DNA from: Candidatus Shapirobacteria bacterium | GTDB lineage: Bacteria > Patescibacteriota > Microgenomatia > UBA12405 | Assembly: GCA_022837635.1 (NCBI GenBank) | Contig: JALHFY010000001.1 | Span: 96,136 to 160,135, forward strand | Length of the DNA: 64,000 bases | Direction of reading: 5' to 3' | Shown here: in pieces, positions 31,471 through 56,557 of the stretch | Numbering within the stretch: position 1 is the first letter of the stretch | Layout of the letters: each line of letters opens with the position of its first letter | Notes under the pieces: model-generated | What the model saw: only the letters and a program-made list of their open reading frames with translations | Told to the model about the DNA's origin: nothing | Databases searched by the model: none | Position numbers and translations under genes: made by a program

Positions 31471-31565
31471 AATAAGATAAATAAATAAAAAACATACCTG
31501 TCTTCGCAAAAAAAAAGCTATGGCATGGCGAAGTAGGGAAGTGGGGGAGGATTTTCACGATATAT

Positions 31566-33230: not shown

Positions 33231-33273
33231 ACGAATATCCTATAATTTTGATATAGAAATATCCTATATTTTT
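33231..33273 (+). repeat. Two direct copies of ATATCCTATA(A/T)TTTT, matching the upstream copy at 31563-31577
   Basis: ACGAATATCCTATAATTTTG..ATATCCTATATTTTT downstream of xer, versus ACGATATATCCTATAATTTTC upstream. The second copy overlaps the gyrA stop codon. Confidence 0.5.
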
Positions 33274-38012: not shown

Positions 38013-38546
38013 TTATTTTTTAACTTTTTCCAAGGACTTGAAGGCGATAAGGGCGGTGGCTAGAAGAACATTGAGGGAAATATTGACACCATACATTGGG
38101 ATTTCAATAATTTGATTACAGAGTTTGAGATTATCGGCAGAGATGCCGGCGACTTCACTACCGGCGACGATAGCCAAAGGAAAAGGATAGTGGTAATGAC
38201 GATAGTCAACAGTGTTTGGACCTTGCTCACAGGCAATAATATGGAAGCCATCTTTTTTAAGTTGTTTGAGACAGTCGGTGGTGGAATTAAAATGTTGCCA
38301 AGGTACCCATTTCCAGGTGCCGACAGAAGCGCGATGAATTTTGAGATTGGGAGGGGTGACAGTGGGGCCACAAAGGTAGATTTTTTGGGCACCTATGGCA
38401 TCGGCTAAACGAAAAAAGGAACCGATATTGTAGGTATCTAAAACATTATCTAAAACTAAGACTAAAGGTTGGCGCGGGATTAGACGTTGTTGTTTTTGCG
38501 ACTTCCCTACCCTGCTCTGACGTAATTGGTGGGAATTGAGTTTCAT
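38013..38546 (-). CDS. SpoU/TrmH-family RNA 2'-O-methyltransferase with basic N-terminal extension
   Basis: SPOUT motifs (LVLDNVLDTYNIGSFFRLADAIGA; IVAGSEVAGIS). The first ~30 codons overlap a GC-rich repeat copy. Confidence 0.75.
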   Translation of the reverse strand: MKLNSHQLRQSRVGKSQKQQRLIPRQPLVLVLDNVLDTYNIGSFFRLADAIGAQKIYLCGPTVTPPNLKIHRASVGTWKWVPWQHFNSTTDCLKQLKKDGFHIIACEQGPNTVDYRHYHYPFPLAIVAGSEVAGISADNLKLCNQIIEIPMYGVNISLNVLLATALIAFKSLEKVKK

Positions 38547-41917: not shown

Positions 41918-42435
41918 TATTTTGACAGTTGCTCTATTTTATCAAGAATTTCGGGAACAATGGACTCGATTTGGATTTTTTCGGTGGCTGGTAGAGGTTG
42001 AAGAACATAGTCTTCGGCGAGAATGTTATGATTTATTGGCTTACCGATACCAACACGGATTCGCCAAAAGCCTTGGGTGCCTAAATGATCAATGATGGAT
42101 TTGATACCGTTGTGGCCGGCGGAACCTCGGTCAAATTGGAGTCGCCACTCCCCTATCGGGAGGTCCAAATCATCATGAATGACATAGATATTGTCGGGAG
42201 AAATTTTATAGAAACGGGCGACTAAACTGAGGGGTATACCCGACTCGTTCATGAAGCCGGTAGAGTGGGCAAAAATATTTTTAGATGACTCCCCCACTCT
42301 ACTTTTCAGCTTACTTTTTTCAGAGAGTCGGAGATGATATTTTTGGGCAAATTGCAGGAGAATATTTTGACCTAAATTATGACGAGTGGACTGATATTTG
42401 GTGCCGGGATTACCAAGACCAAAAAATAATTTCAT
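41917..42435 (-). CDS. pth: Peptidyl-tRNA hydrolase
   Basis: MKLFFGLGNPGTKYQSTRHNLG N-terminus and catalytic His region. Confidence 0.9.
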   Translation of the reverse strand: MKLFFGLGNPGTKYQSTRHNLGQNILLQFAQKYHLRLSEKSKLKSRVGESSKNIFAHSTGFMNESGIPLSLVARFYKISPDNIYVIHDDLDLPIGEWRLQFDRGSAGHNGIKSIIDHLGTQGFWRIRVGIGKPINHNILAEDYVLQPLPATEKIQIESIVPEILDKIEQLSK

Positions 42436-42933: not shown

Positions 42934-44896
42934 TTTCGGTGATAATTTTAACGCCTAATTTTTTGGCGGCAATTAATTTAGCAGAGTTGGAGCTAGGGTC
43001 ATTGGTGATGAGGTAATTGGTGTGTCGGGTGACAGTGGAGTGAAATTTACCGCCGGAATTTTCAATTTGTTGAACCAAGTCAGCACGGGGTTGAGAGAGA
43101 GTGCCGGTGATGGCAAAGTTGAGACCAGAGAGGGATTTTTTTTGGGCTGAAGGAGTGCTTAAAGTCGTATTGACAAGTATCGATATAATCCATTCTTGCC
43201 TGAAATTTATACCATCAATAATTTTTTGAGCCAAGGTTTTTTGAAAACCTTTTTGAGATAATAAATCTTCAAGAGTTAAATTTAATAGCTTGTCTGGAGT
43301 GTCAAAACCGACCAAAATTAATTGTTGAATGCGGGCAGCAGAGAAATTGGGAATGGCGGCAGCATTGAAAACTTCTTTGAGACTGAGACTTCTTTTGGAA
43401 TCGATTTGGGCCAGGATATTTTTGGCAGATTTTTCGCCGAGATTATCTAAATTGGCAATGTCGTGAAGTTGGAGTTTATAAAAATCGCCCGGTTGTTTAA
43501 CTTTGCCGGAGTGGTAGAGTTTTTCAATAGTTTTATCTGAGAGACCAAGGATATTCAGCCGATCACAGAAAAGTTTGAGAGAACCCAGGATTTGGGGTAA
43601 ACAATGATGGCCATTGGGACACTCTAAGTTTTTGTCAGCACGGTGTAAAGGAGTTTGACAGGCGGGACAATGGGTGGGAATAGTAACGTGGCCGGGGGTA
43701 ACCTTGGTAACCACACTTTCAATATGAGGAATGACATCACCACGACGAGATATTTCAATAATGTCACCCAGATTAAGATTTTTTTTGATGACTAAATCAT
43801 AGTTACCCAGAGAAGCAAAGTTGATGACCGCGCCGGAGATTTCCACTGGTTCAATTTCGGCAACGGGGGTGACGGAGCCCAAAGGGCCGACTTGCCAGAT
43901 AATTTTTTGAATTACACTTTGGTTGGAGTCAGCTGGGAATTTATAAGCCACTTGGTATTTAGGGCGGCCATTTTTTTCACCCAGACTTTGGGCAATATTC
44001 AGATTATTGATTTTGACGACTAAACCATCGATGTCAAAGGGGTAGTCTCCCCTATCTCGGCGTAAAAAATTTTGATAAATTGTTTCCACTTCTTCAAAAC
44101 TGTGACAGAGATGTGATTCCACCGGAGTAAAGCCCAGGTTTTTAAGCAAGTTTATTTTTTCTAGTTCAGTGTCAAGTGTGGGAGTGTTGACAGAAATGTC
44201 GGTAGCGTATAAAGAGCAAAGTTCAGAATACATACCATCCAGGCGTTGAGATAGACCGGAGGCGGCATTGCGAGGATTGGAATAAAATCCCTCCGGTCCC
44301 GATAAAATTGTTTTTTTTACGAGTTGATTTAATTTAATAAAGTCTTTTTTAGTCACCAAGATTTCACAGCGAACGGAACCGGTAAATTTTTTGGCAGTGC
44401 TTAAAACTACTTGTTTCATTTTGACTACATTTTGAGTAATGACATCGCCGGTGTGACCGTCACCTCTGGTAATGGCGTCTACAAGTTGGCCATTTTGATA
44501 TTCGATTTCCAGAGAAATACCGTCACATTTGGGCTGGACCAGAAAATCTTCCCCAATTTCCCTCTTATCCCCTTTTGACAAAGGGGAGGATAAAATTTTC
44601 TTTTTAAGTTCAAAGTAATGGACCAGATCGGAGTAGGTACTGACTTTGTTTTGAGAACCCATAGTGAGAGAGTGGGCTTTTTTCTCCCAGCCGGTGTCGA
44701 AATTGTCATGACCGACTTTGGAAAAGAGCCGATGATAGGGTGCTTTTTTCTTTAAGACAGCCTCAAGAGTATCGTAGGTGTGGTCGTCCATAATGGGCCG
44801 ACCGGTAGTGTAATAAGCTTTTTTGGCGTCGACTAAAATTTCACCTAGTTTTTGAGGAGAAATGCTTTCCAAGTCAAAATCAGCAAGAGAGTACAT
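42911..44896 (-). CDS. ligA: NAD-dependent DNA ligase
   Basis: Adenylation KxDG (QPKCDGISLEIEY), Zn-finger Cys4 (CPACQ...CPNGHHC), HhH and C-terminal BRCT. Confidence 0.9.
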   Translation of the reverse strand: MYSLADFDLESISPQKLGEILVDAKKAYYTTGRPIMDDHTYDTLEAVLKKKAPYHRLFSKVGHDNFDTGWEKKAHSLTMGSQNKVSTYSDLVHYFELKKKILSSPLSKGDKREIGEDFLVQPKCDGISLEIEYQNGQLVDAITRGDGHTGDVITQNVVKMKQVVLSTAKKFTGSVRCEILVTKKDFIKLNQLVKKTILSGPEGFYSNPRNAASGLSQRLDGMYSELCSLYATDISVNTPTLDTELEKINLLKNLGFTPVESHLCHSFEEVETIYQNFLRRDRGDYPFDIDGLVVKINNLNIAQSLGEKNGRPKYQVAYKFPADSNQSVIQKIIWQVGPLGSVTPVAEIEPVEISGAVINFASLGNYDLVIKKNLNLGDIIEISRRGDVIPHIESVVTKVTPGHVTIPTHCPACQTPLHRADKNLECPNGHHCLPQILGSLKLFCDRLNILGLSDKTIEKLYHSGKVKQPGDFYKLQLHDIANLDNLGEKSAKNILAQIDSKRSLSLKEVFNAAAIPNFSAARIQQLILVGFDTPDKLLNLTLEDLLSQKGFQKTLAQKIIDGINFRQEWIISILVNTTLSTPSAQKKSLSGLNFAITGTLSQPRADLVQQIENSGGKFHSTVTRHTNYLITNDPSSNSAKLIAAKKLGVKIITENDFQKLL

Positions 44897-44920
44897 GGGA
44901 TTATTATACTGGAAAATCTA

Positions 44921-44992
44921 CCCCTTAATCCCCTCCTTTGATGAAAGGAGGGGAACATTTGAATATAAAACCCCTCTTTATTCAAAGAGGGG
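44921..44992 (+). repeat. Two GC-rich hairpins (CCCCTCCTTT-GATG-AAAGGAGGGG and CCCCTCTTT-ATTC-AAAGAGGGG)
   Basis: Perfect 10- and 9-bp stems read from the sequence. The first is preceded by CCCCTTAATC, identical to the element at 52031-52064. Confidence 0.7.
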
Positions 44993-45002
44993 TAGGGGTG
45001 AT

Positions 45003-46133
45003 TTAGACATTACTTAGGCAATAATAAGCACCCTTGGTGGAGCCACGTTTTTGGACGACTTTATCATCAATCAGTTTTTTGAGGTCACGCCAAATAGTGT
45101 CATCACTGACCATGGGTAAAAGGGATTTGGCGTCGGGCATGCGGAGACCACCGAATTGTTGCATGTATTCGACTAATTTAATTTGTCTTTCACTAAGATG
45201 AATTTGTTTACCACCTAGTTTTTGTTTGAATTTAAGGTCCCGAGAGAGGGTTTGAACTTTGTCTTTGACCCGAGACAATTCAATGGCTAGGACTTCGGTG
45301 TAATAGGTTACCCAATCAGTAAGGTCGCGTTCAAAGATATCGCTGTCTTTTTCGTGGGTTGATTGAAGAGTGTTGTAATAGGTTTCAGCGTTACGATCAA
45401 AATATTCCTCAATAGAGAAAAGACGGCGAATGTCATAACCTTCAACATAAAGAGGTAAAATACCGAAAGCTCGGGAAACACGGCCATTACCTTCGACAAA
45501 AGGGTGGATGGCGACTAAAATGTATTGGGTAATAGCGGCACGGATAGCGGGATGAATCTCTCTGGATTTGGGCTCGTTGAGCCAGGCAACAAAGTCAGAC
45601 ATTAAATATGGGACTTCAATGGCTGGAGGTGGTCGATGAGCAATTTCTCCGGTTTGGGTATTTTTTAAGACGACTTGTTGGCGACGATATTTACCAATAT
45701 CGGCTTCGTCGATGATTTTGGTAGTAGTTAGTTCGTGGATTTTTTTAATAATGCTTTCGCTATAAAAAAAAGGTCGGTTTTTAGGATCGACTCCCTCTTT
45801 ATATTTTTCCTCAGGTAAGGGTAAACCAGCATCAAAGGTGGCCCAGATTTCTTCAAGGTAATTAATAACATTGCGGTAGTTGATGACTTCCTGAATATCC
45901 CGATCGGCAGCGGTAACTTGGCGGCCTTCGACCAATTTGGCCACGTCTTGGTAAGTTAGGTCATTACCTTCGATACGAGTACCATAGTGAACAGTCCGGA
46001 TGACAGCTTCCTGTTGAAATTGTTTTTCATAGGCAGGAATTAAGGGAGCCTCATCGATAACCGCTTTAGCGGCTTCGAGAGTACCGATGTTTTTTAGAAT
46101 CTGGTTATTAATGGTAAATATCGGAGAAAACAT
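45003..46133 (-). CDS. Fic/DOC-family protein with C-terminal wHTH
   Basis: Canonical Fic motif HPFVEGNGRVSRAF. TRIEGN segment near the N-terminus resembles the auto-inhibitory (S/T)xxxE(G/N) helix. Confidence 0.8.
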   Translation of the reverse strand: MFSPIFTINNQILKNIGTLEAAKAVIDEAPLIPAYEKQFQQEAVIRTVHYGTRIEGNDLTYQDVAKLVEGRQVTAADRDIQEVINYRNVINYLEEIWATFDAGLPLPEEKYKEGVDPKNRPFFYSESIIKKIHELTTTKIIDEADIGKYRRQQVVLKNTQTGEIAHRPPPAIEVPYLMSDFVAWLNEPKSREIHPAIRAAITQYILVAIHPFVEGNGRVSRAFGILPLYVEGYDIRRLFSIEEYFDRNAETYYNTLQSTHEKDSDIFERDLTDWVTYYTEVLAIELSRVKDKVQTLSRDLKFKQKLGGKQIHLSERQIKLVEYMQQFGGLRMPDAKSLLPMVSDDTIWRDLKKLIDDKVVQKRGSTKGAYYCLSNV

Positions 46134-46190
46134 GGTGGCCTTATTATAGCAGTTTTTTTTAAGATGTGAGGAAAAAATGCGGTTAATGGT

Positions 46191-46683
46191 AAAACCCTAT
46201 CCCCTCCCCCTTTCCCTTGACAGGGCAAGGGGTTTATATTTAATGTAATATAAAATACACATGAAAAATGGAATTGTAGTTGAATTAAAAACAAGAAAAT
46301 TTCATGTTCGATATTTGGAAAAATTAACTAGAGAATCCAGATTGCATCGTCGAAATCAAACGGAAGCAGAAAAAATAGTTTGGGAACAATTATTGCGACG
46401 AAAACAATTAGGAGTTAAGTTTGTACGTCAAAAAGCTGTTGATAGGTTTATATTAGATTTTTATTGTGCTGATTTATGTTTGGCAATAGAAATTGATGGA
46501 GATTATCACTTAAAGATTAAAGATAAAGATGATTATCGAGACAAGTTTTTACAAGCTTGTGGGATTCGAACTCTAAGATTTACTAACACGGAAGTATTAA
46601 CTGATTTAAATAAAGTTAAATCTACAATTTTGGAATTTATTCACCCTGCCCTGTCAAGGGAAGGGATGGGGAAGGGTTTTTAA
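46191..46683 (+). mobile_element. DUF559 endonuclease ORF bracketed by ~44-bp imperfect inverted repeats
   Basis: Left IR 46191-46234 (AAAACCCTATCCCCTCCCCCTTTCCCTTGACAGGGCAAGGGGTTT). Right IR 46641-46683 (reverse complement AAAAACCCTTCCCCATCCCTTCCCTTGACAGGGCAGGGTG). The right IR encodes the ORF C-terminus and stop. Confidence 0.5.
46261..46683 (+). CDS. DUF559 (Vsr-like restriction-endonuclease-fold) domain protein
   Basis: Pattern QTEAEKIVWEQLLRRKQLGVKFVRQKAVDRFILDFYCADLCLAIEIDGDYH...IRTLRFTNTEV is typical of DUF559. Confidence 0.7.
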   Translation: MKNGIVVELKTRKFHVRYLEKLTRESRLHRRNQTEAEKIVWEQLLRRKQLGVKFVRQKAVDRFILDFYCADLCLAIEIDGDYHLKIKDKDDYRDKFLQACGIRTLRFTNTEVLTDLNKVKSTILEFIHPALSREGMGKGF

Positions 46684-47306
46684 CTCAACAAAAACCAATC
46701 TAGGGCGCTTTTGGGGTCAACATTGGCTTCAATTAGTTCAAGAGAATGAATGAGGGCGGAGAGTTTTTTGGCGCTTTGAGCTGAGGGTTGTTGAATTAAT
46801 TCGATTTGCCAGGCAGTTATTTGTTCTAGAAGTAGATCTTTAATTTCACTTTTGTCGGTGTAAAGAGTTGGGGCTAAATTTAGATCTTTTTTAACTTGGC
46901 CACTGGTTTTAATGGGAGTGACCGATTTTGTCGGTTGAGTTTCAACGACTTTGATTTGGTGACAACGAGAGATGATAGTAGGTAGCAGTCGAGCGGGATG
47001 GGTAGATGTCAGAATAATATAGTTGTTTTCACCGGGATCTTCGAGGGTTTTTAAGAGAGTATTTTGAGATTCTAAATTAAGCTGGTGAGCTTCAGGGATA
47101 AAAATAATTTTACTGGGATGGTTGTAGGCTTTTTGAGAGAGAAATTTTTTGAGTTTACGGACGGCTTCGATACTATAATCAGTGAGTTCAAAAAGATCGG
47201 GGTTATTGTCAGGAAGATGGTTTAATTTGGAAAAAATTTCCAGTGCTTTTTGACGTGAAGATTGGGGGGAAGAGCTGATAATTAGGCTTGAAGGAAAGGG
47301 TGTCAT
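46680..47306 (-). CDS. holB: DNA polymerase III delta-prime subunit, short form lacking Walker A region
   Basis: LLKTLEDPGENNYIILTSTHPARLLPTIISRCHQIKV matches the delta-prime sensor/SRC region. Confidence 0.6.
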   Translation of the reverse strand: MTPFPSSLIISSSPQSSRQKALEIFSKLNHLPDNNPDLFELTDYSIEAVRKLKKFLSQKAYNHPSKIIFIPEAHQLNLESQNTLLKTLEDPGENNYIILTSTHPARLLPTIISRCHQIKVVETQPTKSVTPIKTSGQVKKDLNLAPTLYTDKSEIKDLLLEQITAWQIELIQQPSAQSAKKLSALIHSLELIEANVDPKSALDWFLLS

Positions 47307-47328
47307 AGTTTACTATAGATTATAGTGT

Positions 47329-49068
47329 ATGCCTGCCGAATTAAAAAATTATAAAAAACTGTCAGAACTCCTTTTAGATAAGGGGGTGATTACCAAGGCT
47401 CAGGCTGAAGAAATCAGCTTGAAGATGGTCAAGAGTGGTGAAAGTGAAGAGGCGATTATTCGGTCAATGAGATTATTTCCGGAAGAAGATTTCCTGAGAT
47501 ATAAGGCAGAATTCTTAAAAATTCCCTTTGTAGATTTGGATGAGGTTGGTTTTTCACCGGAGGCTTTGTCATTAGTGGCCCAGAGTGTGGCGGAAAAGTA
47601 TCATTTGGTCCCCTATCGCATGGATCCCAAGAACAAAATTCTTGAAGTGGCGATGGCTAATCCTCTGGATTTGGAGACAATCGAATTTTTGGAAAAGAAG
47701 ACTGGTCTGCGGATTAAAGCAGTGATGGCGTTGGAGTCAAAAATTGACGCTTTTATCCAAGAAAAATATGAGAGAGAAAAAGGAATTACCTCCGAGGTGA
47801 GCAAGGCTTTGGATGAAAGAAAGGCTGATGAGGCTAAGATTGAAGAGGAAAGCGCTAAAGCGGTTACAACAGAAGCTCCAATTGCCAAAATTGTGAATAC
47901 GATTTTGGCATACGCAGTTCGTTCTCGGGCTTCTGATGTACATATTGAACCGTTAGAAGAAAATGTTAGAGTTAGATATAGAATTGATGGTATTTTACAG
48001 GAAAAATATGTGTTACCTCGAAATGTGCTGGAGGCGGTGGTTTCCCGGATTAAGATTTTAGCTAACTTAAAAATTGATGAAAAAAGAATCCCTCAAGATG
48101 GACGTTTTAATATCAATGTTGATGGTAATGAAGTGGATTTGCGGGTATCAACTTTACCTGTGTCTTATGGTGAAAAGGTGGTAATGCGCTTACTGCGGAA
48201 ATCTTCAAAGGTGCCGTCTTTACCTGATTTAGGCTTAAGAGGTTTAGCTTTGAAGAATTTGATTGAGTCAATTGAGAGACCACACGGAATTATTATTGTT
48301 TGTGGACCAACAGGTTCAGGTAAAACCACGACCCTCTATTCAATTTTAGACAAGGTGGCGACACCAAAAGTCAATGTAGTTACGATTGAAGATCCGGTGG
48401 AGTATCAAATGAAGGGAGTTAATCAGGTTCAAGTGAATGTCCAAGCAGGTTTAACTTTTGCCTCGGCTTTGAGGTCATTTTTACGGCAGGATCCAAATAT
48501 CATGATGGTAGGAGAAATTCGGGATACAGAAACGGCGGAGCTAGCAATTAATGCGGCTTTAACTGGGCATTTAGTGTTTTCAACTTTACACACCAATGAT
48601 GCAGCGGGAGCACCACCGCGGATGTTGGATATGGGGGTGGAGCCATTTTTGTTAATTTCAGCTTTGACTTGCGTGGTGGCTCAGCGGGTACTGAGGAGAC
48701 TATGCACTGAATGTCGTCAATTTGTAGAAATTGATCCAGGAACATTGAGTGAGCTCAAAGAAACTTTGGGACCGATTTATGGGATGCTTGAAGAGAAGGC
48801 TAAAAAAGAAGGTAAGGTGTTAAAACTGCCTAAGGCAGTAGGGTGTCCAAAATGTAATAATACCGGTTATATGGGGAGAATTGCTATTTATGAAGTAATG
48901 CCGATTACAGAAAAAATTAGTAAAATGATAGTAGAGCATGCGGCGGCATCGGCGATTCAAAAACAGGCAATTGAAGAAGGGATGTTGACCATGAAACAAG
49001 ATGGTTACGTTAAAGTTTTAGAAGGAATTACTACCGTAGATGAAGTGCTACGGGTAGCACAATATTAA
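47329..49068 (+). CDS. pilB: Type IV pilus assembly ATPase PilB (GspE family)
   Basis: GspE N-terminal domain, Walker A GPTGSGKTTTLYS, Asp/His boxes, tetracysteine (CTECRQ...CPKCNNTG). Confidence 0.9.
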   Translation: MPAELKNYKKLSELLLDKGVITKAQAEEISLKMVKSGESEEAIIRSMRLFPEEDFLRYKAEFLKIPFVDLDEVGFSPEALSLVAQSVAEKYHLVPYRMDPKNKILEVAMANPLDLETIEFLEKKTGLRIKAVMALESKIDAFIQEKYEREKGITSEVSKALDERKADEAKIEEESAKAVTTEAPIAKIVNTILAYAVRSRASDVHIEPLEENVRVRYRIDGILQEKYVLPRNVLEAVVSRIKILANLKIDEKRIPQDGRFNINVDGNEVDLRVSTLPVSYGEKVVMRLLRKSSKVPSLPDLGLRGLALKNLIESIERPHGIIIVCGPTGSGKTTTLYSILDKVATPKVNVVTIEDPVEYQMKGVNQVQVNVQAGLTFASALRSFLRQDPNIMMVGEIRDTETAELAINAALTGHLVFSTLHTNDAAGAPPRMLDMGVEPFLLISALTCVVAQRVLRRLCTECRQFVEIDPGTLSELKETLGPIYGMLEEKAKKEGKVLKLPKAVGCPKCNNTGYMGRIAIYEVMPITEKISKMIVEHAAASAIQKQAIEEGMLTMKQDGYVKVLEGITTVDEVLRVAQY

Positions 49069-50133
49069 ATGCATTCAAAAACAGAAGAAATTTGTAAATT
49101 AGCGATTGCTAATGGGGCTTCAGACATTCATTTACAAATGGGTCAAGTACCCAAGATGAGAGTCCATGGTTCACTTATTGATATTGGTACCTTTGGAGTT
49201 ATTGATGATCCGGAGTTAATTTTATCCTTGCTTTCGGAAAAACAAAGAGAAGAATTTATAGTAGAAAAGGAAATGGATTTGTCAGTAACTTTAGATGATT
49301 ACCGCTTTCGGGCTAATGTTTTTCACCAAAAAGGTCAATTAGCCTCTGCCCTGAGAGTGATTGTTGATCAGATTCCGGAACTTGGTAGTTTAGGATTACC
49401 AGAAGTGGTTAAAAGTTTTACCAAGTTAAGACAAGGTTTTGTTTTAGTTACTGGTCCGACAGGTCAAGGAAAATCGACTACTGTGGCTTCAATCTTGAAT
49501 GAAATTAACAAGGAAAACTCGGTAAGTATTGTAACAATTGAGGATCCGATTGAGTATGTGATTAGACCAATTAAATCCTTGGTTTCACAACGTGAATTAG
49601 GGGAAGATACTTTGAGTTTTGATAGGGCCTTAAAATCTTCATTAAGACAGGATCCGAATGTGGTTTTTGTGGGGGAAATGCGAGATTTAGAAACGATACA
49701 GTTGGCTTTGACAGTGGCGGAAACCGGACATTTGGTCTTTTCGACTTTACATACTAATTCAGCAGCTCAGTCGATTGATAGAATTATTGACGTTTTTCCT
49801 GAAGGGAGTAAACCCCAAATTAGAATGCAGTTAGCATCGGTATTGTCGGCAGTAGTGTCACAGCGGTTGATACCGACCACTGATGGTCAGCGAACAGTGG
49901 CAGCTGAAATATTGATAACTAATCCGGCTTTGGCTAACACTATCCGAGAAGGAAAAACTTTTATGATTGATAATATTATTCAAACTGGGGCCGATCAGGG
50001 AATGGTGGGGTTGGAAATGTCACTGGCGAGATTGGTTAAGAGTGGTAAAGTTGAAGAGCGTTTGGCGGCAAGTTTTGCCTTGAGACCGGAAGAATTTCTT
50101 AATAGTTTAAGACTTCTAAAGAAAAATGGCTAA
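49069..50133 (+). CDS. pilT: Type IV pilus retraction ATPase PilT
   Basis: Walker A GPTGQGKSTT. PilT-type core without an N-terminal GspE domain. Confidence 0.85.
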   Translation: MHSKTEEICKLAIANGASDIHLQMGQVPKMRVHGSLIDIGTFGVIDDPELILSLLSEKQREEFIVEKEMDLSVTLDDYRFRANVFHQKGQLASALRVIVDQIPELGSLGLPEVVKSFTKLRQGFVLVTGPTGQGKSTTVASILNEINKENSVSIVTIEDPIEYVIRPIKSLVSQRELGEDTLSFDRALKSSLRQDPNVVFVGEMRDLETIQLALTVAETGHLVFSTLHTNSAAQSIDRIIDVFPEGSKPQIRMQLASVLSAVVSQRLIPTTDGQRTVAAEILITNPALANTIREGKTFMIDNIIQTGADQGMVGLEMSLARLVKSGKVEERLAASFALRPEEFLNSLRLLKKNG

Positions 50134-51340
50134 ATTTATTTATAAAGCCAGGGATTGGAGTGGAAAATTAGTCAAAGGTGAGTTGGATTTACCGAGTCAA
50201 AAAGAAGTAGTGGAGTCAATTAAAGATAGTGGCTTGATTCCTTTGTCAGTGAAAGCCAAATCTGGAGGAATGTTTTCGGAATTAACCAAGGCGCTTAAAG
50301 GTAGAGTTAACTTAAAACAAGTCAGTACTTTTACTCGTCAATTATCAACGATGTTGACGGCCGGATTGGCACTGACGGATGCTTTGGCACTGTTAAAAAA
50401 TCAATATGATGAAGGTAGCGGTTTAGGACAAATTGTAGGTAAGGCTTTGGATGAGGTTCGAGGAGGGATGCCTTTGGGAAAATCACTTTCAGGATCTCAA
50501 AAAGTTTTTGGAGAGGCATATATCGCCTCGATTTCAGCTGGAGAAGAGGCGGGAGTATTGGATGAGGTGATGAGTAAATTGGCTGATACGACGGAGAATC
50601 AAAGTGAGTTTCAGGGTAAGGTCAAAGGAGCGATGATTTATCCGATTATCGTGATTGTGGCCATGATAGTTGTGGCTTTTGTAATGATGATTTTTGTGAT
50701 TCCGAAAATGACGGCTATGTATGCGGATTTTGGAACGGCCCAAATGCCCAAAATTACTCAGGCTTTGATGAGTATTTCCAGTTTTGTGTCTAAGGTGTGG
50801 TTTATGTTTCCTTTAATGGGAGTGATTTTGTTCATGGTTTATAGAGTGGCTATGAAAAGTCAGGATTTTCATATGCGTCGGGATAGATATATTTTGAAAA
50901 TTCCGATTATCGGGGTATTAAACGAAAAATCGGTTTTGGCCAATACTACTAGGACTTTGTCTATGTTGTTAACGGCAGGAATTACTTTAGTGGAGGCCTT
51001 AAAGATTGTAGCGACAGTTTCGGGAAATAAAGTTTATGAAAAAGCTTTTTTGGAAATTGCGGAAAAGGTGCAAAAAGGTTTTTCAGTGGCGGTATCTTTT
51101 GAAAATACCGGTATTTTTCCACCGATTGTTAATCAAATGATTTCGACTGGTGAGGCGACAGGAAAACTGGATGAGGTATTAATGAAAGTTTCAGATTACT
51201 TTACCAAAGAGGCGGAAGAAGCGGTGAAAGCTTTGACGGCGGCGATAGAGCCGTTGATTATGGTAATTTTAGGTATTGGAGTGGGTTTTTTGGTAGTAGC
51301 GGTGATCATGCCTATTTATACCTTGACATCTTCCGTCTAA
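50126..51340 (+). CDS. pilC: Type IV pilus platform protein PilC (GspF family)
   Basis: Two GspF repeats with three TM segments. Confidence 0.85.
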   Translation: MAKFIYKARDWSGKLVKGELDLPSQKEVVESIKDSGLIPLSVKAKSGGMFSELTKALKGRVNLKQVSTFTRQLSTMLTAGLALTDALALLKNQYDEGSGLGQIVGKALDEVRGGMPLGKSLSGSQKVFGEAYIASISAGEEAGVLDEVMSKLADTTENQSEFQGKVKGAMIYPIIVIVAMIVVAFVMMIFVIPKMTAMYADFGTAQMPKITQALMSISSFVSKVWFMFPLMGVILFMVYRVAMKSQDFHMRRDRYILKIPIIGVLNEKSVLANTTRTLSMLLTAGITLVEALKIVATVSGNKVYEKAFLEIAEKVQKGFSVAVSFENTGIFPPIVNQMISTGEATGKLDEVLMKVSDYFTKEAEEAVKALTAAIEPLIMVILGIGVGFLVVAVIMPIYTLTSSV

Positions 51341-51385
51341 AAATGCCACAATGGTATCAAGTTAGTTAAAAATTTCTTAAAAAGA

Positions 51386-52018
51386 ATGACAATGAGAAAA
51401 GCTTTTACATTGGTGGAACTATTGATAGTTATCACCTTGATTGCCATATTGTCGGTCGCAGTGTTGGCAACTTTGAATCCTATTGAACAGACCAATAAGG
51501 CTCGCGATGCTCAGTTTAAGAATGATGCGGCGGAAGTCTTGAGTGCTCATGAACGTTACTTTGCCTCCCAGAACGCTTATGCTTGGAATTCTGGCACTGG
51601 TCAAACTGTTGCTGTAGGAGTTGCTGCAGTAATGCCTGGAAATGTTCCTATGTTTGGAGTAGTAGGTAGCAATTGGGATGGTAATGGGGTCGGGTCTACA
51701 GATTCGCCTTTAATCCAGACATCAGAAATTAAAACCTCTTTTCTGAATAAGGCTCCTTTTAGAGAGGAACCTAAACCAATTGATATGTTTTATGCTTATA
51801 CTGATGGAGCGGACACTAATTATGTCTGTTTCTTTCCTAAAGCTAAGGCTAACAGAACTGGAGAGCAAGGAGCCAAGTTAAAATGTATGGATCCGGTTGA
51901 TACTGCAGATGCTCAAATATATTCACAAGGAGTGGGTTGTACATTAGCCACTTCTTGGACAAATGCTGATTTGACACCTCAAAGTGGGATAGCTAATTTG
52001 ATGTGTGTACCGGAATAA
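51386..52018 (+). CDS. Type IV (pseudo)pilin, likely major pilin
   Basis: Class III signal MTMRKA|FTLVELLIVITLIAILSVAV with Glu at +5. First pilin gene, followed by a strong terminator. Confidence 0.75.
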   Translation: MTMRKAFTLVELLIVITLIAILSVAVLATLNPIEQTNKARDAQFKNDAAEVLSAHERYFASQNAYAWNSGTGQTVAVGVAAVMPGNVPMFGVVGSNWDGNGVGSTDSPLIQTSEIKTSFLNKAPFREEPKPIDMFYAYTDGADTNYVCFFPKAKANRTGEQGAKLKCMDPVDTADAQIYSQGVGCTLATSWTNADLTPQSGIANLMCVPE

Positions 52019-52040
52019 GGTACTAAATCCACCCCTTAAT

Positions 52041-52075
52041 CCCCTCCTTTGAGTAAAGGAGGGGAGTTTTTTTTG
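52041..52075 (+). terminator. Intrinsic terminator: CCCCTCCTTT-GAGT-AAAGGAGGGG followed by T8
   Basis: Perfect 10-bp GC-rich stem plus a U-tract, read directly, just downstream of the major pilin. Same element as 44921-44954. Confidence 0.75.
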
Positions 52076-52086
52076 TACAATAGGCT

Positions 52087-52839
52087 ATGAATTTAGTTTG
52101 CTTTCTTTTGGGATTGGCGGTGGGGAGTTTTGTCAATATGGCAATATGGCGGGTGGAGCATAGGCAGTCGATTCTTAAAAAACAGCGAAGTTTTTGTGAT
52201 TTTTGTAAAAAGCCACTGAGATTTTATGACAACATTCCCCTACTCTCTTTTTTAGTATATAGAGGAAAAAGCCGATGTTGTGGTAAAAAATTGCCAGGAT
52301 ATTATCCGGTGGTGGAAATGTTGATGGGAATATTGTTTGCTTTAAAATCACCCCCTAGCCCCCTCTTTGAGGAAAGAGGGGGAATTGTGCTCTTAGTTTT
52401 ATGGAGTATATGGGTTTTGTTGGTTTTTGAGGCGGTGTTTGATGTCAAAAAAATGATGATTCCGGATGCGACGGCCATACCTTTAATGGTGTTGGCTGAA
52501 TTAAGGAGAAGATTGTTAGGTTTGCCGGTAAGTGAATGGTGGAGTGCTTTGGGAGCAGGTCTGTTTATCTGGTTATTAACTAAAATTAAAATTAAGGGGA
52601 AGCAAGCAATGGGCGAGGGTGATGCTTTGTTGGCGGTATTTATGGGACTATTTTTGAGTTTTCCTAAAATTATAGTGGCTTTTTATGTGGCTTTTATCAG
52701 CGGGGCGGTGATTGGTTTGATATTAATAGCGAAGAAAAAAAAGAAGCAACTCTCCCCTATTCCCTTTGGCCCCTTTTTAATTTTTGGAACAATAATTGCC
52801 TATTTTTGGGGAGAAAAAATTATTAGTTTATTTTTTTGA
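52087..52839 (+). CDS. pilD: Prepilin peptidase PilD (A24 family)
   Basis: N-terminal Zn-binding CxxC pairs (CDFCKK...CCGKK), polytopic membrane protein with the conserved Asp-containing loop. Contains an in-frame GC-rich repeat insertion (SPPSPLFEERGG). Confidence 0.85.
   Translation: MNLVCFLLGLAVGSFVNMAIWRVEHRQSILKKQRSFCDFCKKPLRFYDNIPLLSFLVYRGKSRCCGKKLPGYYPVVEMLMGILFALKSPPSPLFEERGGIVLLVLWSIWVLLVFEAVFDVKKMMIPDATAIPLMVLAELRRRLLGLPVSEWWSALGAGLFIWLLTKIKIKGKQAMGEGDALLAVFMGLFLSFPKIIVAFYVAFISGAVIGLILIAKKKKKQLSPIPFGPFLIFGTIIAYFWGEKIISLFF
52349..52383 (+). repeat. GC-rich palindromic element (ACCCCCTAGCC-CCCTCTTT-GAGG-AAAGAGGGGG) inside pilD coding sequence
   Basis: Same architecture as the intergenic elements at 44921 and 52031. 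Perfect 10-bp stem, read directly. Confidence 0.7.
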
Positions 52840-52860
52840 GAAAAGGTTACAATAGTTTAT

Positions 52861-53406
52861 ATGAAAAAACAGAAAGCAATAAGTTTAGTGGAGATAATAA
52901 TCGTGATAGCGATTTTGATGATTTTACTGGTAATTGCTTTGGGGATATTTAAGCCAGCGGCAATGGTTAATCGGGCTCAAGATGCCGAAAGAAAGGCAGA
53001 TTTGGATAGAATTAAAATTGCTTTTGAGGATTATTACAACGACAAAGGATGTTATCCAAATTACAACGAATATTTACATAAAATGTTTGATGAAGCTTAT
53101 TGTGATAAGGATTTTTTTAAGCCTTGGATGAACAAGTGGCCTTGTGATCCTGACGGTAAGCCCTATCCGATAATTGTGGGGGTTGGAAGTGAGACTGAAA
53201 TTTGTCCAAAGTTTTTTAAGATTATGGCTAAGTTGGAAAATAAAGGTGATCCTCATCTTTATAATCAAGGACCGATAGAGGAGGAGTTTGCCAACGTCGC
53301 CAACTACTCAGTTTCCAGTCCTAATTATCCAAATATTCCACCAACGATAATTGTGGATGCGACCAGTACTCCAATGTTGACCGATATCAGAACTCAAGGG
53401 GGCTAA
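52861..53406 (+). CDS. Type IV pilin-like protein (minor pilin 1)
   Basis: MKKQKA|ISLVEIIIVIAILMILLV class III signal with Glu at +5. Confidence 0.65.
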   Translation: MKKQKAISLVEIIIVIAILMILLVIALGIFKPAAMVNRAQDAERKADLDRIKIAFEDYYNDKGCYPNYNEYLHKMFDEAYCDKDFFKPWMNKWPCDPDGKPYPIIVGVGSETEICPKFFKIMAKLENKGDPHLYNQGPIEEEFANVANYSVSSPNYPNIPPTIIVDATSTPMLTDIRTQGG

Positions 53407-53408
53407 GT

Positions 53409-53930
53409 ATGATATCTTTAATTATGAAGAGAGCTTTCACTTTGGTAGAACTGTTAGTAGTGATAGCAATTATGGGAATTTTGACGACGATTGCGGTTGG
53501 ACAATTTCAGACTGCTAAAAGAAAGGCCAATGATGTGGCTCGTAAAGGTGATTTGGATGCTGTTTCCAAAGCTTTGCAACTTTATTATGCGGATTATAAG
53601 AGGTTTCCGGAGGCGACCAGTGATGGAAGAATGGTGATTGGGACGGGGACAACTGTGGAATGGGGTGATGAGTTTGTGGATGAGGGTTATATTTATATGA
53701 AAAAAATGCCTCAAGAGAATGTGGTGAGTTCCCCTCAGTATTGTTATAAGAGCAGTGCTGACGGTAAAAATTATGCTCTTTTTGCTAAATTGGAAAATAA
53801 AGAAGATAAGCAGTGTAAATTAGATGAAAATAAAAAAATGACCTATGATTGTGGAGGGATAACTGATAATTATTGTTTTGTTTATCTCAGTCCCAACGTG
53901 GAGGTAGATAGTGATGGAAATTTTATCTAA
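53409..53930 (+). CDS. Type IV pilin-like protein (minor pilin 2)
   Basis: ...MKRA|FTLVELLVVIAIMGILTTIAV. Alternative start at 53424. Confidence 0.7.
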   Translation: MISLIMKRAFTLVELLVVIAIMGILTTIAVGQFQTAKRKANDVARKGDLDAVSKALQLYYADYKRFPEATSDGRMVIGTGTTVEWGDEFVDEGYIYMKKMPQENVVSSPQYCYKSSADGKNYALFAKLENKEDKQCKLDENKKMTYDCGGITDNYCFVYLSPNVEVDSDGNFI

Positions 53931-53931
53931 T

Positions 53932-54324
53932 ATGAAAAAAGCTTTTACTTTAATTGAATTATTGGTAGTGATTTCGATTATTGGTGTTTTGACGGCGATA
54001 GTGGTGCCTAATTTTATGGGAGCCAGAGAAAGGGCTAGTGATAGCCAGAGAAAACAAGATATGGTGTCGATTAAAAATGCTTTGAGGACTTACTATAATG
54101 ACAATCAAAGATATCCGAGTATGGCCACTTGGACAGATGATATAGAAGACTATATTCCTTCAATTAAGGATTTTAGTGATTACAGTTATGTTTTAGTCAA
54201 TAGCGATGCTTTTACCTTGGGAGCGGAAATGGAGGCGACACGAGAACAGGAAATTAAGGATAGTCAAGACAGGTGTGGAATTACTGATGATAATGATACA
54301 AAATATTATGTATGTGCTAATTAA
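53932..54324 (+). CDS. Type IV pilin-like protein (minor pilin 3)
   Basis: MKKA|FTLIELLVVISIIGVLTAIVV. Start chosen after the upstream stop at 53930. Confidence 0.7.
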   Translation: MKKAFTLIELLVVISIIGVLTAIVVPNFMGARERASDSQRKQDMVSIKNALRTYYNDNQRYPSMATWTDDIEDYIPSIKDFSDYSYVLVNSDAFTLGAEMEATREQEIKDSQDRCGITDDNDTKYYVCAN

Positions 54325-54362
54325 AAATTAAAGCAATAAGTAAAATTACAAAATATAAATTT

Positions 54363-54770
54363 ATGAAGAAAGCGTTTACCCTTTTTGAACTATTGGTAGT
54401 GATTTCAATTATTGGGATTTTGATTGCGGTGGCGTCAATATCTTATAGTGGGGCTCAAAAAAAGTCTCGGGATGCTAGAAGGATTCAGGATATGAATGCG
54501 ATCCAGAAAGCAGCGGAGATGTATTACAGTCAGAACAATTATCTTTATCCAGGTAGCAGTCAATTGATTAGTTCAGGTTTGATGTCGGTGATGCCGACAG
54601 ATCCAAAGAATGCTTCTCCTTATGTTTATAGTTTTTCAGGGTTGACGAATGGGGCTAGTAATTATTGTCTTTGTGCCCTGTTGGAAAATGCTACAGGAGG
54701 TAATGCCAGTGATGGTAATTGCACTATGGCAAGTTCTGGTACTTATTATTGTGTTAGAAATCAACAATGA
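54363..54770 (+). CDS. Type IV pilin-like protein (minor pilin 4)
   Basis: MKKA|FTLFELLVVISIIGILIAVA. Confidence 0.7.
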   Translation: MKKAFTLFELLVVISIIGILIAVASISYSGAQKKSRDARRIQDMNAIQKAAEMYYSQNNYLYPGSSQLISSGLMSVMPTDPKNASPYVYSFSGLTNGASNYCLCALLENATGGNASDGNCTMASSGTYYCVRNQQ

Positions 54771-55138
54771 GAAAGGCTTTTACTTTGATCGAATTAATTG
54801 TGGTGATTACTATCATTGCGGTTTTAAGTGTAGTGGGAATGGTGAGTTTTTCAGGGATAAATATGAAATCTCGGGATGCTAGAAGGATTCAGGATTTACA
54901 AAAAATTGCGGCGGCTTTGGAGATATTTCGACAAGCTGATATTAGCAAGAGTTACCCAACAACAACAGCATCATTGGTACCTAATTATTTACAGGTTATG
55001 CCCACTGATCCCAAGACTAAAGCAAATTATCCTTATAATCGGGTGAATCCATATCGATATACTCTGACGGCAACTTTGGAAGATGCTCGAAATAATCCTA
55101 ACCAAGCTAGTACGACTTATACGCTAAATAGTCCTTGA
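54767..55138 (+). CDS. Type IV pilin-like protein (minor pilin 5)
   Basis: MRKA|FTLIELIVVITIIAVLSVV. ATGA overlap with the previous gene. Confidence 0.7.
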   Translation: MRKAFTLIELIVVITIIAVLSVVGMVSFSGINMKSRDARRIQDLQKIAAALEIFRQADISKSYPTTTASLVPNYLQVMPTDPKTKANYPYNRVNPYRYTLTATLEDARNNPNQASTTYTLNSP

Positions 55139-55158
55139 TTTGTGCTAAAGTTTTTATA

Positions 55159-55656
55159 GTGAAACGAGCTTTTACTTTAATTGAATTATTGGTAGCAGTA
55201 GGCATTATTTTGGTGTTGTCGGCGGGAGCTTTTGTCTATATAAATCAAGGTTTACAGAGGCAAAAATTGCTCAGGGCGGCAGGAGAAGTAATGTCAGGAT
55301 TCAGATTAGCTAATTCATTGGCAAAAACTAGACAAATGCCTCAAGGTAGCAGTGGTAATTTGGTGGTGGTGGAGAGTTATTTTAATAATAATAGATTGTA
55401 TGTAAATGCAATTTCATCGGTGGGGACAACAATTAATTTTTCTGAAGAGGTGGTAGAAATACCGATAAATAATAGTAACAGGTGGTTTTTTTATGCGGGA
55501 ACTGGATTTTTAGGGAAAAATGCGACTGGAACAATGTATGGTGCCGGGGAAACAGCCACCATTACCTTGAGTTTAAGTGAAAATTATAATATGTCGATTC
55601 CGATTTTTATTGACGCCATGGGTCAGGTGAGCCAAGGGGAGGTAGTGCAAAACTAA
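55159..55656 (+). CDS. Type IV pilin-like protein (minor pilin 6); start uncertain (GTG 55159 or TTG 55135)
   Basis: VKRA|FTLIELLVAVGIILVLSAGA. Confidence 0.6.
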   Translation: MKRAFTLIELLVAVGIILVLSAGAFVYINQGLQRQKLLRAAGEVMSGFRLANSLAKTRQMPQGSSGNLVVVESYFNNNRLYVNAISSVGTTINFSEEVVEIPINNSNRWFFYAGTGFLGKNATGTMYGAGETATITLSLSENYNMSIPIFIDAMGQVSQGEVVQN

Positions 55657-56060
55657 TGAAAAAAGGTCAAGCTTTAATTGAATCAGTGGTGGCAGTGGGA
55701 GTTTTGGCTTTGGTGATGACGGCGGCAATTGCTTTGATAGTGATGTCAACTGCCAATAGAAGGAGCAATTTTGACAGGAGAAAGGCCAATGAATTGGCTA
55801 ATAAAGTAGTAGAGACTTTTGTTAATGAGAGTCAGAATAATGTGGTTGTTTTTTGGAATAATTTGAGTGGAGGTGATTGCGGGGAATCCGCTTTTACTGG
55901 ATATACTTGTAACTATAATTTTACTATATTGACTCAACCGGCTCATGCTAATTGTGGCAATGGCTCACCACCCAGATGTGTTGAATTGACAGTAACAGTC
56001 AGCTGGCCCGGAAAAACACCGCAAAATTTAATTGTTAAGCGTTTTTTTAGTCAAGGATGA
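55656..56060 (+). CDS. Type IV pilin-like protein (minor pilin 7, Gly at -1)
   Basis: MKKG|QALIESVVAVGVLALVMTAAIALI with Glu at +5. Confidence 0.65.
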   Translation: MKKGQALIESVVAVGVLALVMTAAIALIVMSTANRRSNFDRRKANELANKVVETFVNESQNNVVVFWNNLSGGDCGESAFTGYTCNYNFTILTQPAHANCGNGSPPRCVELTVTVSWPGKTPQNLIVKRFFSQG

Positions 56061-56557
56061 AAAGGGCTTTTACTTTGATTGAAATTGTGGTGATGGTGGC
56101 TATTTTGGGGTTGATTATGACGATGTTGTCTGGATCTTTAGGAATTTCTTTTAAGCTTAAAAATTCAACTGAAACTAATGAGAAATTGACCAGTAAAGCT
56201 AATTTTGTTTTTAATGAATTGAAAAAAAATATTTTAGAGGCTAAACCGGAAACGATAGTTTGTAGTGGTGGTAATCAACTGCGTTACACGGCGACTAATG
56301 GTAAAGAGATTGTTTTAAGCTGTGATATAGTTGGAAGCCAGATTGCTTCCAGGTCAGCGACAACAGGAGAGGTTTTTTATTTATTAGATAAGGAAGTTTC
56401 ACCTAATAATTGCAGTAATTTTGTTACTTGTCATTTGAGAACAGGAAGTAGTGTGGTGGAGTCGGTAGATGTGGTTTTGGATTTAAGGACAGTAGTGGGG
56501 GCTGAGGGAGTGGGTAGTAGTGGTCGTTTTTACCAAACAATTTCGCCACGTCTCTAA
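56057..56557 (+). CDS. Type IV pilin-like protein (minor pilin 8)
   Basis: MKRA|FTLIEIVVMVAILGLIMTML. Confidence 0.7.
   Translation: MKRAFTLIEIVVMVAILGLIMTMLSGSLGISFKLKNSTETNEKLTSKANFVFNELKKNILEAKPETIVCSGGNQLRYTATNGKEIVLSCDIVGSQIASRSATTGEVFYLLDKEVSPNNCSNFVTCHLRTGSSVVESVDVVLDLRTVVGAEGVGSSGRFYQTISPRL

Follow-up and report, generated by a model that had tools for sequence, protein, structure and literature searches.

Relation to described palindromic repeats

Repetitive extragenic palindromic (REP) sequences, together with their inverted doublets (REPINs) and the REP-associated tyrosine transposases (RAYTs), comprise GC-rich imperfect palindromes of 20-45 nt which carry a short non-palindromic tag at one end (PMC3116915, PMC2817692, PMC3733652). 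They are dispersed mostly just downstream of genes, often as inverted doublets folding into a larger hairpin, occasionally occur inside replication and repair genes, fall into distinct subfamilies and are accompanied by a single-copy small gene bracketed by inverted repeats. The same traits were observed for a GC-rich hairpin element in a 64-kb stretch of a Candidatus Shapirobacteria genome (contig JALHFY010000001.1, positions 96,136 to 160,135; hereafter the window), on which all analyses of this genome were carried out. An initial annotation of the window had listed three copies and proposed a repeat resembling a REP or a MITE (miniature transposable element with inverted repeats), which can serve as a terminator and tolerates insertion into coding sequence. 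Four copies (E1 to E4) were found, which very probably represent a small (about 38-46 nt) mobile, REP-like family of palindromic DNA in Shapirobacteria and related bacteria of the candidate phyla radiation (CPR). The proposed REP/MITE-like nature was supported by the dispersal of the family and by presence/absence indels between relatives. No paper describing this CPR repeat family was found in the literature.

Judged by analogy, REP/REPIN sequences with their RAYT appear to be the closest counterpart, but the two systems differ in several respects. The tag of the present element reads AAATC(N)CCCC instead of GTAG or CGTC, the host is an AT-rich CPR bacterium, and the associated gene encodes a DUF559/Vsr-like PD-(D/E)xK nuclease instead of an HUH tyrosine transposase; no RAYT was seen among the 67 of 79 open reading frames (ORFs) of the window that were scanned. 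Size and copy number agree with those of the tagged REP super-families, whereas the unpaired GTAG or CGTC tag of these families (PMC3733652) is missing. The bases adjacent to the stem are TTAAT, CTAG, CTA or TAA, the AAATC(N)CCCC tag stands 2-5 nt away from the stem, and CTAC, the complement of GTAG, was found only in the variant AAATCTACCCC, away from the stem. By these sequence features, the element is best placed outside the classical tagged REP families. A REPIN-like arrangement was present in E1 and E4, which form an inverted pair, fold jointly and are gained or lost as a unit. Terminal inverted repeats of the MITE kind were found for this doublet and for a DUF559 cassette, whereas a derivation from an autonomous insertion sequence (IS) was not apparent; the only gene-bearing units with matching ends encode DUF559 and no known transposase.

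REPs inside genes, often replication and repair genes, have already been described (PMC3733652). Rickettsia palindromic elements (PMC1779305, PMC3733652) and Coxiella MITEs (PMC5896051) likewise add short peptides at tolerated positions and decay over time, and in-frame insertions of this kind were found in pilD, ligA and dnaX in the window and in radA, rho and trxB in relatives. The Rickettsia elements differ, however, in that those of the RPE-1 type are about 100-150 bp long and specific to Rickettsia, whereas the element studied here measures about 40 nt, has an unrelated sequence and a CPR host, and apparently is used as a terminator as well. Yeast mitochondrial GC clusters (PMC4478555) are also GC-rich palindromes of about 40 nt in a very AT-rich genome; they are gained and lost rapidly, their modules merge and shuffle, they pass between species, and no encoded transposase is known for them. 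They differ in being located in an organelle and in having unrelated sequences, and they have not been described in connection with nuclease cassettes. Bacterial interspersed mosaic elements (BIMEs; PMC2817692) consist of hairpin modules joined in fixed relative orientation, as was also observed at three of the loci studied here (L023, L049 and L080), but their sequences differ and no binding of integration host factor, gyrase or DNA polymerase I is known for the present element. Finally, DUF559 has been grouped within the PD-(D/E)xK superfamily with Vsr and with the group I intron homing endonuclease I-Bth0305I, the enzyme of PDB 3r3p (PMC3424549, PMC3239194). Like homing genes, the cassette of the window encodes a Vsr-like nuclease domain, occupies a fixed, conserved intergenic site in some lineages, is absent from a syntenic outgroup (L174) with an empty spacer, and has alleles that turn over. 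I-Bth0305I, in contrast, belongs to a group I intron and carries an additional DNA-binding domain, whereas the cassettes described here are free-standing, bracketed by hairpins and leave solo repeats.

Small palindromic repeats that double as terminators and are sometimes intragenic were thus already known from proteobacteria, Rickettsia and yeast mitochondria. New are a well-defined family with its own tag in tiny AT-rich CPR genomes, its clear gain, loss and overwriting at hot spots in the essential genes named above, and a consistent structural link to DUF559 nuclease cassettes, not to any transposase. The elements can serve as fine-scale markers for strain-level evolution in metagenomes, and the short Pro/Ser/Gly-rich peptide inserts and spurious ORF extensions which they cause affect the annotation of CPR proteins.

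Copies, anatomy and turnover of the element

A profile hidden Markov model (HMM), built from 39 copies of other genomes and run on the window with nhmmer, gave exactly four strong matches in 64 kb. The profile HMM was used instead of a covariance model because the two stem lengths are brought out of register by MAFFT. E1 (44913-44955, plus strand; E=1e-12) and E4 (44971-45005, minus strand; E=2e-10) are located in the stretch from the fic stop to the ligA start, E2 (52024-52066, plus strand, or 52024-52074 with its tail of eight thymidines, T8; E=5e-13) between the pilin gene and pilD, and E3 (52342-52384, plus strand; E=5e-14) inside pilD. PilD homologues place the window in a CPR genome akin to Candidatus Shapirobacteria, and the local gene order is ligA (minus strand), fic (minus), a DUF559 gene (plus), a holB-like gene (minus), pilB, pilT, pilC, the major pilin gene, pilD and a row of pilin-like genes. 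Coordinates and sequences of the three copies named in the initial annotation were confirmed, and a "related hairpin" which it had placed at 44971-44992 proved to be a complete minus-strand copy, the fourth of the window (CACCCCTACCCCTCTTTGAATAAAGAGGGG). E1 consists of AAATCTACCCCTTAAT followed by CCCCTCCTTT-GATG-AAAGGAGGGG, and E4 of AAATCACCCCTA followed by CCCCTCTTT-GAAT-AAAGAGGGG and then TTTTATATT. Repeat finding joined E1, E2 and E3 into one 41-nt family (D3). The hairpin core CCCCTCYTTTGANNAAARGAGGGG gave 0.00 matches in 100 dinucleotide-preserving shuffles of the window, and a 16-nt tag outside the stem was identical or nearly identical across loci and species. E1 to E4 make up four of the seven perfect GC-rich hairpins of the whole window; they are conspicuous in part because the plus strand is very poor in C (15,624 G against 8,911 C; 61 CCCC against 255 GGGG). 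GC skew was almost uniformly positive along the window, with values of +0.1 to +0.5 in 2-kb steps and about 0 only near 58-60 kb.

Each of the four copies folds into a perfect stem of 9-11 bp capped by a GANN tetraloop, with energies of -15 to -20 kcal/mol; the RNA folds of E1 and E4 had -20.2 kcal/mol (z=-4.7) and -15.2 kcal/mol (z=-3.3), respectively. A gathering-threshold scan of the whole window against Rfam showed three tRNAs only and no match for the elements, and permissive Rfam scans of 44400-46800, 51900-52500 and 31400-33300 yielded only sub-threshold chance matches. From 5' to 3', a unit is composed of the non-palindromic tag AAATC(N)CCCC(T), a spacer of 2-5 nt, the stem and an A-rich 3' edge. 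The 5' arm of the stem is C-rich and the 3' arm G-rich, T3/A3 stands beside the tetraloop, and the hairpins of 24-26 nt lie within units of 38-46 nt. Alignment of the 39 copies revealed two CPR subfamilies in which tag and stem co-vary. Subfamily A, with E1 and E2, has the tag AAATC[CT]ACCCCT(T)A(AT) and a CC/GG stem, and subfamily B, with E3 and E4, has the tag AAATCACCCC(C)TAN and a C/G stem.

Further copies were searched for in one genome per species (185,579 species, 596 Gb, both strands), using the hairpin core with both optional stem bases as the pattern. At least 120 loci of this species-representative collection matched, where about four would be expected by chance (an estimate from 20 specified bases, four length variants, 596 Gb and two strands); the initial annotation had regarded a lack of further copies as a sign of chance similarity, and that objection falls away. 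At least 34 loci labelled Shapirobacteria and about 54 CPR loci were among the matches listed. The latter count takes in metagenome-assembled genomes (MAGs) labelled "uncultured Gammaproteobacteria", all of which carry the CPR-type tag AAATC.ACCCC. The remaining listed loci belonged to Cloacimonadota, Nitrospirota, Omnitrophota, Elusimicrobiota, Bacteroidota and one many-copy Pseudomonadota MAG. Up to three E copies per 8-kb locus were present in other Shapirobacteria, with four per 64 kb in the window, and inverted doublets besides E1+E4 were found at six loci (L010, L059, L078, L092, L111 and L117).

Of the 119 matches listed, 70 had a tag motif which the search pattern did not include, A[AC]TC(N0-2)CCC, at most 22 nt 5' of the hairpin, compared with 11 that had it on the 3' side and one or two that had it at control offsets, indicating that the unit is oriented and larger than the hairpin. 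The tag AAATCNCCCCYNR alone was not enriched in the window (7 found against 7.6 expected) and is therefore informative solely beside the hairpin. In several non-CPR genomes the tag was mirrored on the 3' side, which yields a nested palindrome.

Seven MAGs labelled "uncultured Gammaproteobacteria" (L003, L015, L034, L051, L056, L061 and L087) are apparently mislabelled; L034 is syntenic with the window, and the CPR-type tagged element was present in all seven. The Pseudomonadota MAG P01_H01_bin.22 contained at least 12 loci (L001, L040, L064, L066, L075, L078, L079, L085, L088, L090, L100 and L108) with near-identical TTGACAAATCTCCCCTAA-CCCCTCTTTTGAAAAAAGAGGGG copies, which sit in a longer repeat generating a family of spurious ORFs. 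Viral contigs gave only five matches to the core pattern, and four of these (L176-L179) had identical flanking sequence and apparently represent a single orthologous locus of related contigs; these matches do not point to carriage by phages.

Six syntenic relatives were compared with the window, i.e. UBA1420, L175, L121, L034, L123 and L174. Aligned blocks of UBA1420 (loci L055/L073) showed 84-96% nucleotide identity to the window, and PilD identity to the window was 90% in L175, 85% in L121, 73% in L034 and 58% in both L123 and the outgroup L174. E1 and E4, a 17-nt spacer apart, form a 99-nt inverted-doublet block (44904-45002), which was present in the window and in UBA1420 and cleanly absent in L121. 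L175 and L174 lacked the block as well, with fic abutting ligA in both, and L034 carried a different, AT-rich element at this spot. Folded jointly, E1 and E4 gave one nested three-way structure (-47.6 kcal/mol, z=-5.8). The UBA1420 orthologue of E1 contained two non-compensated stem mutations, indicating that the stem is without strong constraint there. A second clean presence/absence pair was a 46-nt copy in L006 that was absent from L109, the empty form reading AAAT|ATTT. An apparent empty-site pair, L051 and L101, proved to be false, as the element was present in both. The flanks of the E1/E4 site, TTATAC and TTAGAC, match imperfectly; the 3' flank consensus across copies was AAWW, and single units showed only a weak outer symmetry of the form AAAT..AWTT.

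E3 lies within the pilD ORF (52087-52839; Pfam A24_N_bact and Peptidase_A24) and encodes SPPSPLFEERGG / KSPPSPLFEERGG in a loop between two hydrophobic segments, just ahead of the segment with the invariant D119. This loop was variable in the PilD alignment. UBA1420 and L175 had E3 in intact form; L121 and L122 had lost much of the C-rich arm through erosion (C to A/T) and kept the G-run, and this loss of C fits the strong strand bias. It was still recognisable in L123 and was absent from the outgroup L174, where the loop is about 17-21 nt shorter. The pattern of intact, eroded and absent states indicates that E3 is an old decaying insertion and not a recent one. The in-frame copy in pilD that had been reported at first was thus confirmed, whereas its description as a clean insertion of 12 residues did not hold, as PilD relatives of 85-87% identity have a loop of near-equal length and different sequence. 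The segment is not an ancestral one carried by all relatives either, since the outgroup lacks it.

Another element was found inside ligA (44543-44600, plus strand, antisense to the gene), reading AAAATCTTCCCC..TTTCCCTCTTAT-CCCCTTT-TGAC-AAAGGGG and encoding ILSSPLSKGDKREIGEDF. The site, between YFELKK and VQPKCDG, showed four states among the window and its relatives: it was empty in L174, held an E-type copy in L034 and an unrelated palindrome of 32 or 43 nt in UBA1420, L121 and L175, the place of which is taken in the window by the element with the TGAC loop. The linker of dnaX (ORF 9412-10857) contains in frame the nested palindrome CGTC-TCC-GCCCCGC-CGCT-GCGGGGC-TCC-GACG (10476-10507, plus strand), which encodes PVSAPPLRGSD. 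It forms a perfect hairpin and is another hairpin module of the wider set. This element was absent from the 87-88% identical DnaX proteins P0243, P0244 and P0246 and was present, duplicated or decayed in P0242, P0245 and P0247; the same module, GCCCCGCCGCTGCGGGGC, also formed part of the left end of an L131 DUF559 cassette.

Of the 145 testable copies, 38 (26%) lay within ORFs of at least 100 aa, housekeeping genes included, in line with the initially proposed tolerance of the element in coding sequence. Verified hosts were RadA (two species, one site), Rho, TrxB, a glycosyltransferase (two species, one site), an FkbM methyltransferase and an acetyl-CoA synthetase-like protein, and the peptide usually encoded by intragenic copies was KSPPxPSLxKEG. 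In radA, an E-type hairpin was present in L109 and L068 and missing from L006, where a different hairpin fills the same site. Taken together, the sequence comparisons show that the elements, singly or as inverted doublets, preferentially enter AT-rich positions where genes end and, in frame, protein loops or linkers, that other hairpin modules re-use and overwrite sites already taken, and that old copies decay, chiefly by losing C from the strand poor in this base.

A further hot spot was the linker which joins the ATPase domain of RadA to the Lon-like one, with different modules, E-type and TCTCTCCTT-AACA-AGGAGAGA, at one site in three Shapirobacteria (L109 395-545, L068 3280-3430 and L006 6420-6560). 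The Rho gene of L039 contained a GC-rich coding repeat, KLPASPAGRQTS, twice in its N-terminal extension. AT-rich units of the TCAATCTTCAG type were present at the fic/ligA junction of L034 (7400-7470) and as long arrays in a Flavobacteriaceae genome, and L072 and L104 were also listed among loci with other repeat families.

A role of the element as a terminator, likewise proposed at first, was supported for two copies. E2 on the plus strand was the best and E4 on the minus strand the second-best terminator-like site in 44000-53000. Both consist of a hairpin followed by a T-run as in intrinsic terminators, whereas E1 and E3 have no T-run. E2 is followed by T8, with the major pilin gene (51386-52018) upstream and pilD downstream, and was kept in UBA1420, L121, L122 and L034; L123 and L174 carried unrelated GC hairpins with a T-run at exactly the E2 position. 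Anatomy and position indicate that E2 is likely the intrinsic terminator of the major pilin gene and that E4 likely terminates fic.

DUF559 cassettes and their proposed role in the spread of the hairpins

The DUF559 gene of the window (46261-46683, plus strand, 140 aa) is located 1.2 kb from E1/E4 in a cassette (46192-46684) bracketed by a 32-nt inverted repeat (I4), the arms of which are 81% complementary. The protein matched Pfam PF04480 (E=2e-28) and PDB 3hrl (E=2e-12), with which the DF..E.DG..H motif could be aligned, and has a Vsr-like PD-(D/E)xK endonuclease domain. The left inverted end (46192-46240, plus strand) consists of AAACCCTATCCCCTCC and CCCCTTtCCCT-TGAC-AGGGcAAGGGG and is a terminator-like site. 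The right inverted end (46634-46684, minus strand) shares sequence with the 3' end of DUF559 and also with the stop codon of the holB-like gene, which is convergent. Both arms share the layout of E1 to E4, i.e. AAACCCTATCCCCTCC followed by a GC hairpin, the loop of which is TGAC here. DUF559 has its C-terminal tail, PALSREGMGKGF, encoded by the right arm, a tail common to homologues (..PALSREG.G.GF).

The cassette was absent from the outgroup L174, in which the fic-holB spacer measures 62 nt. L034 carried a DUF559 allele of the window type with an N-terminal frameshift; the ratio of nonsynonymous to synonymous substitution rates (dN/dS) between the window and L034 alleles was 0.15 over 132 gap-free codons, and DUF559 is thus under purifying selection. 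At the same site, UBA1420, L121 and L175 had a different allele, N-terminally truncated and with different ends, and kept a remnant of the window-type left end beside it. The ligA-internal element of the window aligned with the inverted ends of the UBA1420/L121 allele, and solo copies of the UBA1420-type end module were dispersed in other Shapirobacteria, once inside trxB. Solo end modules recurred in a fixed mosaic of a type-2 hairpin followed by a reversed E-type copy (L023, L049 and L080).

A sample of 50 DUF559 loci was collected from metagenomes by protein similarity, 41 of which were testable for inverted repeats in the flanks. In 26 of these 41 independent loci, the best inverted repeat between the upstream and the downstream flank exceeded the 95th percentile of mismatched-locus controls. 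The ends in one well-sampled CPR group were arranged as TTAAAACCCTCCGTC, a variable small hairpin, CCACCTCCCTTGACAGGGAGG, the gene and the mirror image, while the neighbouring genes differed. Perfect GC hairpins amounted to 2.61 per kb beside DUF559 and 0.25 per kb elsewhere in the same loci, a roughly tenfold contrast. Among the at least 120 loci listed, DUF559 was the only recurrent small gene beside E-type copies. E-like hairpins bracketed DUF559 directly in L117, L004 and L019 (an Endomicrobiales, a Cloacimonadales and a Thermodesulfovibrionales genome) and were located on one side of it in L023 and L056. No paper linking DUF559 to repeats was found in the literature; a DUF559-domain protein has been described to trigger the DNA-damage response in Caulobacter (PMC12907096).

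The best overall explanation, which we regard as probable, is a mobile hairpin family combined with a mechanism of spread that involves DUF559. That the DUF559 protein itself is the mobilising enzyme is suggested by the association and is put forward tentatively. The hairpins would be modules of the terminal inverted repeats of small DUF559 cassettes, the nuclease would nick or cut element ends or AT-rich targets, and repair of the break, templated by another copy, would spread the whole cassette or, far more often, the hairpin ends alone. This would parallel REP/REPIN sequences and the RAYT transposase, with a different enzyme. With a little more reserve still, DUF559 proteins, a very widespread branch of Vsr-like nucleases, might maintain and spread transposase-less REP-like repeats across many phyla, each lineage with its cognate ends, and thereby give rise to single copies and doublets, some of them in frame within essential genes; RAYT and REPIN would then have an analogue based on a nuclease. 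If the link between DUF559 and the repeats is causal, it would provide a function for a very large domain-of-unknown-function family and a testable answer to the question of how REP-like repeats without a RAYT move.

Several observations weigh against mobilisation by DUF559. The hairpin type of the window cassette, CCCTTGACAGGG, differs from that of E1 to E4. E-type profile matches were obtained in only one of the 50 protein-selected DUF559 loci (L164), and more than 90% of the E copies had no DUF559 in the retrieved locus. The contrast in hairpin density given above is inflated because the control spans whole loci, coding DNA included. Neither the two clean pairs of empty and filled sites nor the statistics of the flanks revealed a convincing target-site duplication. 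Shared permissive intergenic spots could simply collect both GC-rich hairpins and genes acquired horizontally, and the scan for transposases spans the 64-kb window alone, so that an enzyme encoded elsewhere in the genome is possible. Characterised enzymes of the Vsr family are mismatch nickases or intron homing enzymes, and to our knowledge no Vsr-family enzyme moves hairpin repeats.

Among the alternatives, movement in trans survived best. The elements would then be ordinary non-autonomous transposons of the MITE/REP type, mobilised by a RAYT, an IS200/IS605 or another IS enzyme encoded elsewhere in the genome, and DUF559 would be a passenger or neighbour; we consider this possible but doubtful. 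Such movement would agree with the behaviour of the inverted-ended doublet as one indel, with the distance of most copies from any DUF559 and with the rarity of E-type hairpins around DUF559 in the protein-based sample. The examined part of the genome was 64 kb, and REPs are well known both in company with RAYTs and within genes (PMC3733652, PMC3116915). However, no transposase family, Y1_Tnp included, was matched among the 67 of 79 window ORFs scanned, in which the sole recombinase was Xer-like, and no such family recurred beside the copies among the at least 120 loci listed, whereas DUF559 did. Movement in trans is also at variance with the missing GTAG or CGTC tag (PMC3733652), with the lack of a visible target-site duplication and with the occurrence, in many lineages, of DUF559 cassettes that have their own matched inverted ends.

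It is unlikely that the hairpins spread without any dedicated enzyme, by recombination, gene conversion or replication template switching between palindromes, a mode proposed for the GC clusters of yeast mitochondria, and that DUF559 was captured between them. The overwriting of sites by unrelated palindromes of similar length, the mosaics and nesting of modules and the unseen target-site duplication would agree with such processes, and yeast GC clusters merge and shuffle likewise in an AT-rich genome (PMC4478555). This alternative, however, leaves unexplained why the tag, itself not palindromic, keeps its sequence and orientation in different species and phyla, and why it is specifically DUF559, and not some other small gene, that recurs between matched ends.

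Much less probable is that the copies are host-functional motifs under selection, such as uptake sequences for the adjacent type IV pilus/competence machinery, protein-binding sites or a regulatory RNA. All four copies lie in or beside the pilus gene cluster. Neisseria uptake sequences often form inverted pairs that double as terminators. E2 and E4 have the appearance of functional terminators. With about 0.06 copies per kb, the density was, however, far below that of uptake sequences, and a DNA-uptake sequence was rejected for this reason. In other genomes the copies adjoin unrelated genes, orthologous copies decay without compensation, close relatives vary in presence and absence, and no Rfam match was obtained. 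Independent intrinsic terminators, or ancestral sequences, that are alike by chance or convergence would fit the T-runs of two of the four copies at gene ends, but are refuted by the absence of matches in the shuffled windows, the shared 16-nt tag outside the stem, the intragenic copies and the clean indels. Two further candidates were rejected, namely a CRISPR locus, as there was no array, and integron attC sites, as there was no integrase and the structure was different.

Short units and other features of the window

The initial annotation had also listed shorter units related to the element at several sites. The 13-nt motif ACTCCCCYAVYCT had seven matches in the window compared with 1.1 expected, and none of 100 shuffles reached seven. 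One unit, ACTCCCCCAGCCT (31988-32000, plus strand), is followed by T9 and has no E-type hairpin. Two units (33121-33133 and 33197-33209, plus strand), each followed by ..CTG..AATAATGG, are located downstream of the gene of the Xer-like recombinase. A unit with one mismatch, ACTTCCCTACCCT (38501-38513, plus strand), falls within the first codons of the SpoU methylase gene, which is encoded by the opposite strand, and a further one was found at 42288-42300. The presence and enrichment of these units and the overlap with the 5' end of the SpoU gene could thus be confirmed; the units form no hairpin, and a kinship to the 35-nt element is no more than a possibility.

Three copies of ACTCCCCYAVYCT flank the gene of the Xer-like tyrosine recombinase (32108-33067; Pfam Phage_integrase, 6e-43). 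Immediately before this gene, a G-rich spacer of 637 nt without ORFs (31471-32107) ends in the short motif and T9. It had no Rfam match and a modest folding signal (z=-1.9), and may be an unannotated RNA or a decayed gene. A release-factor-like ORF of 235 aa (16748-17455, minus strand), directly downstream of the L31 gene, matched the second half of PCRF and the RF-1 domain, indicating that the usual N-terminal part of a release factor is seemingly missing or in another frame. Short direct repeats were found in ORFs without a Pfam match and without annotation at 3986-4553 and 58659-58792; they comprise three copies of TCAGGNTTGTTCTACTAG..TGT and a 50-nt pair, TACTCCTAACTGTAGCTG.., and resemble Cys-rich peptide repeats. 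Finally, eight successive pilin-like genes (51391-56122) share an N-terminal repeat of 67 nt (D1), which corresponds to the prepilin leader and the hydrophobic helix and recurs at intervals of about 400-500 nt after pilD.

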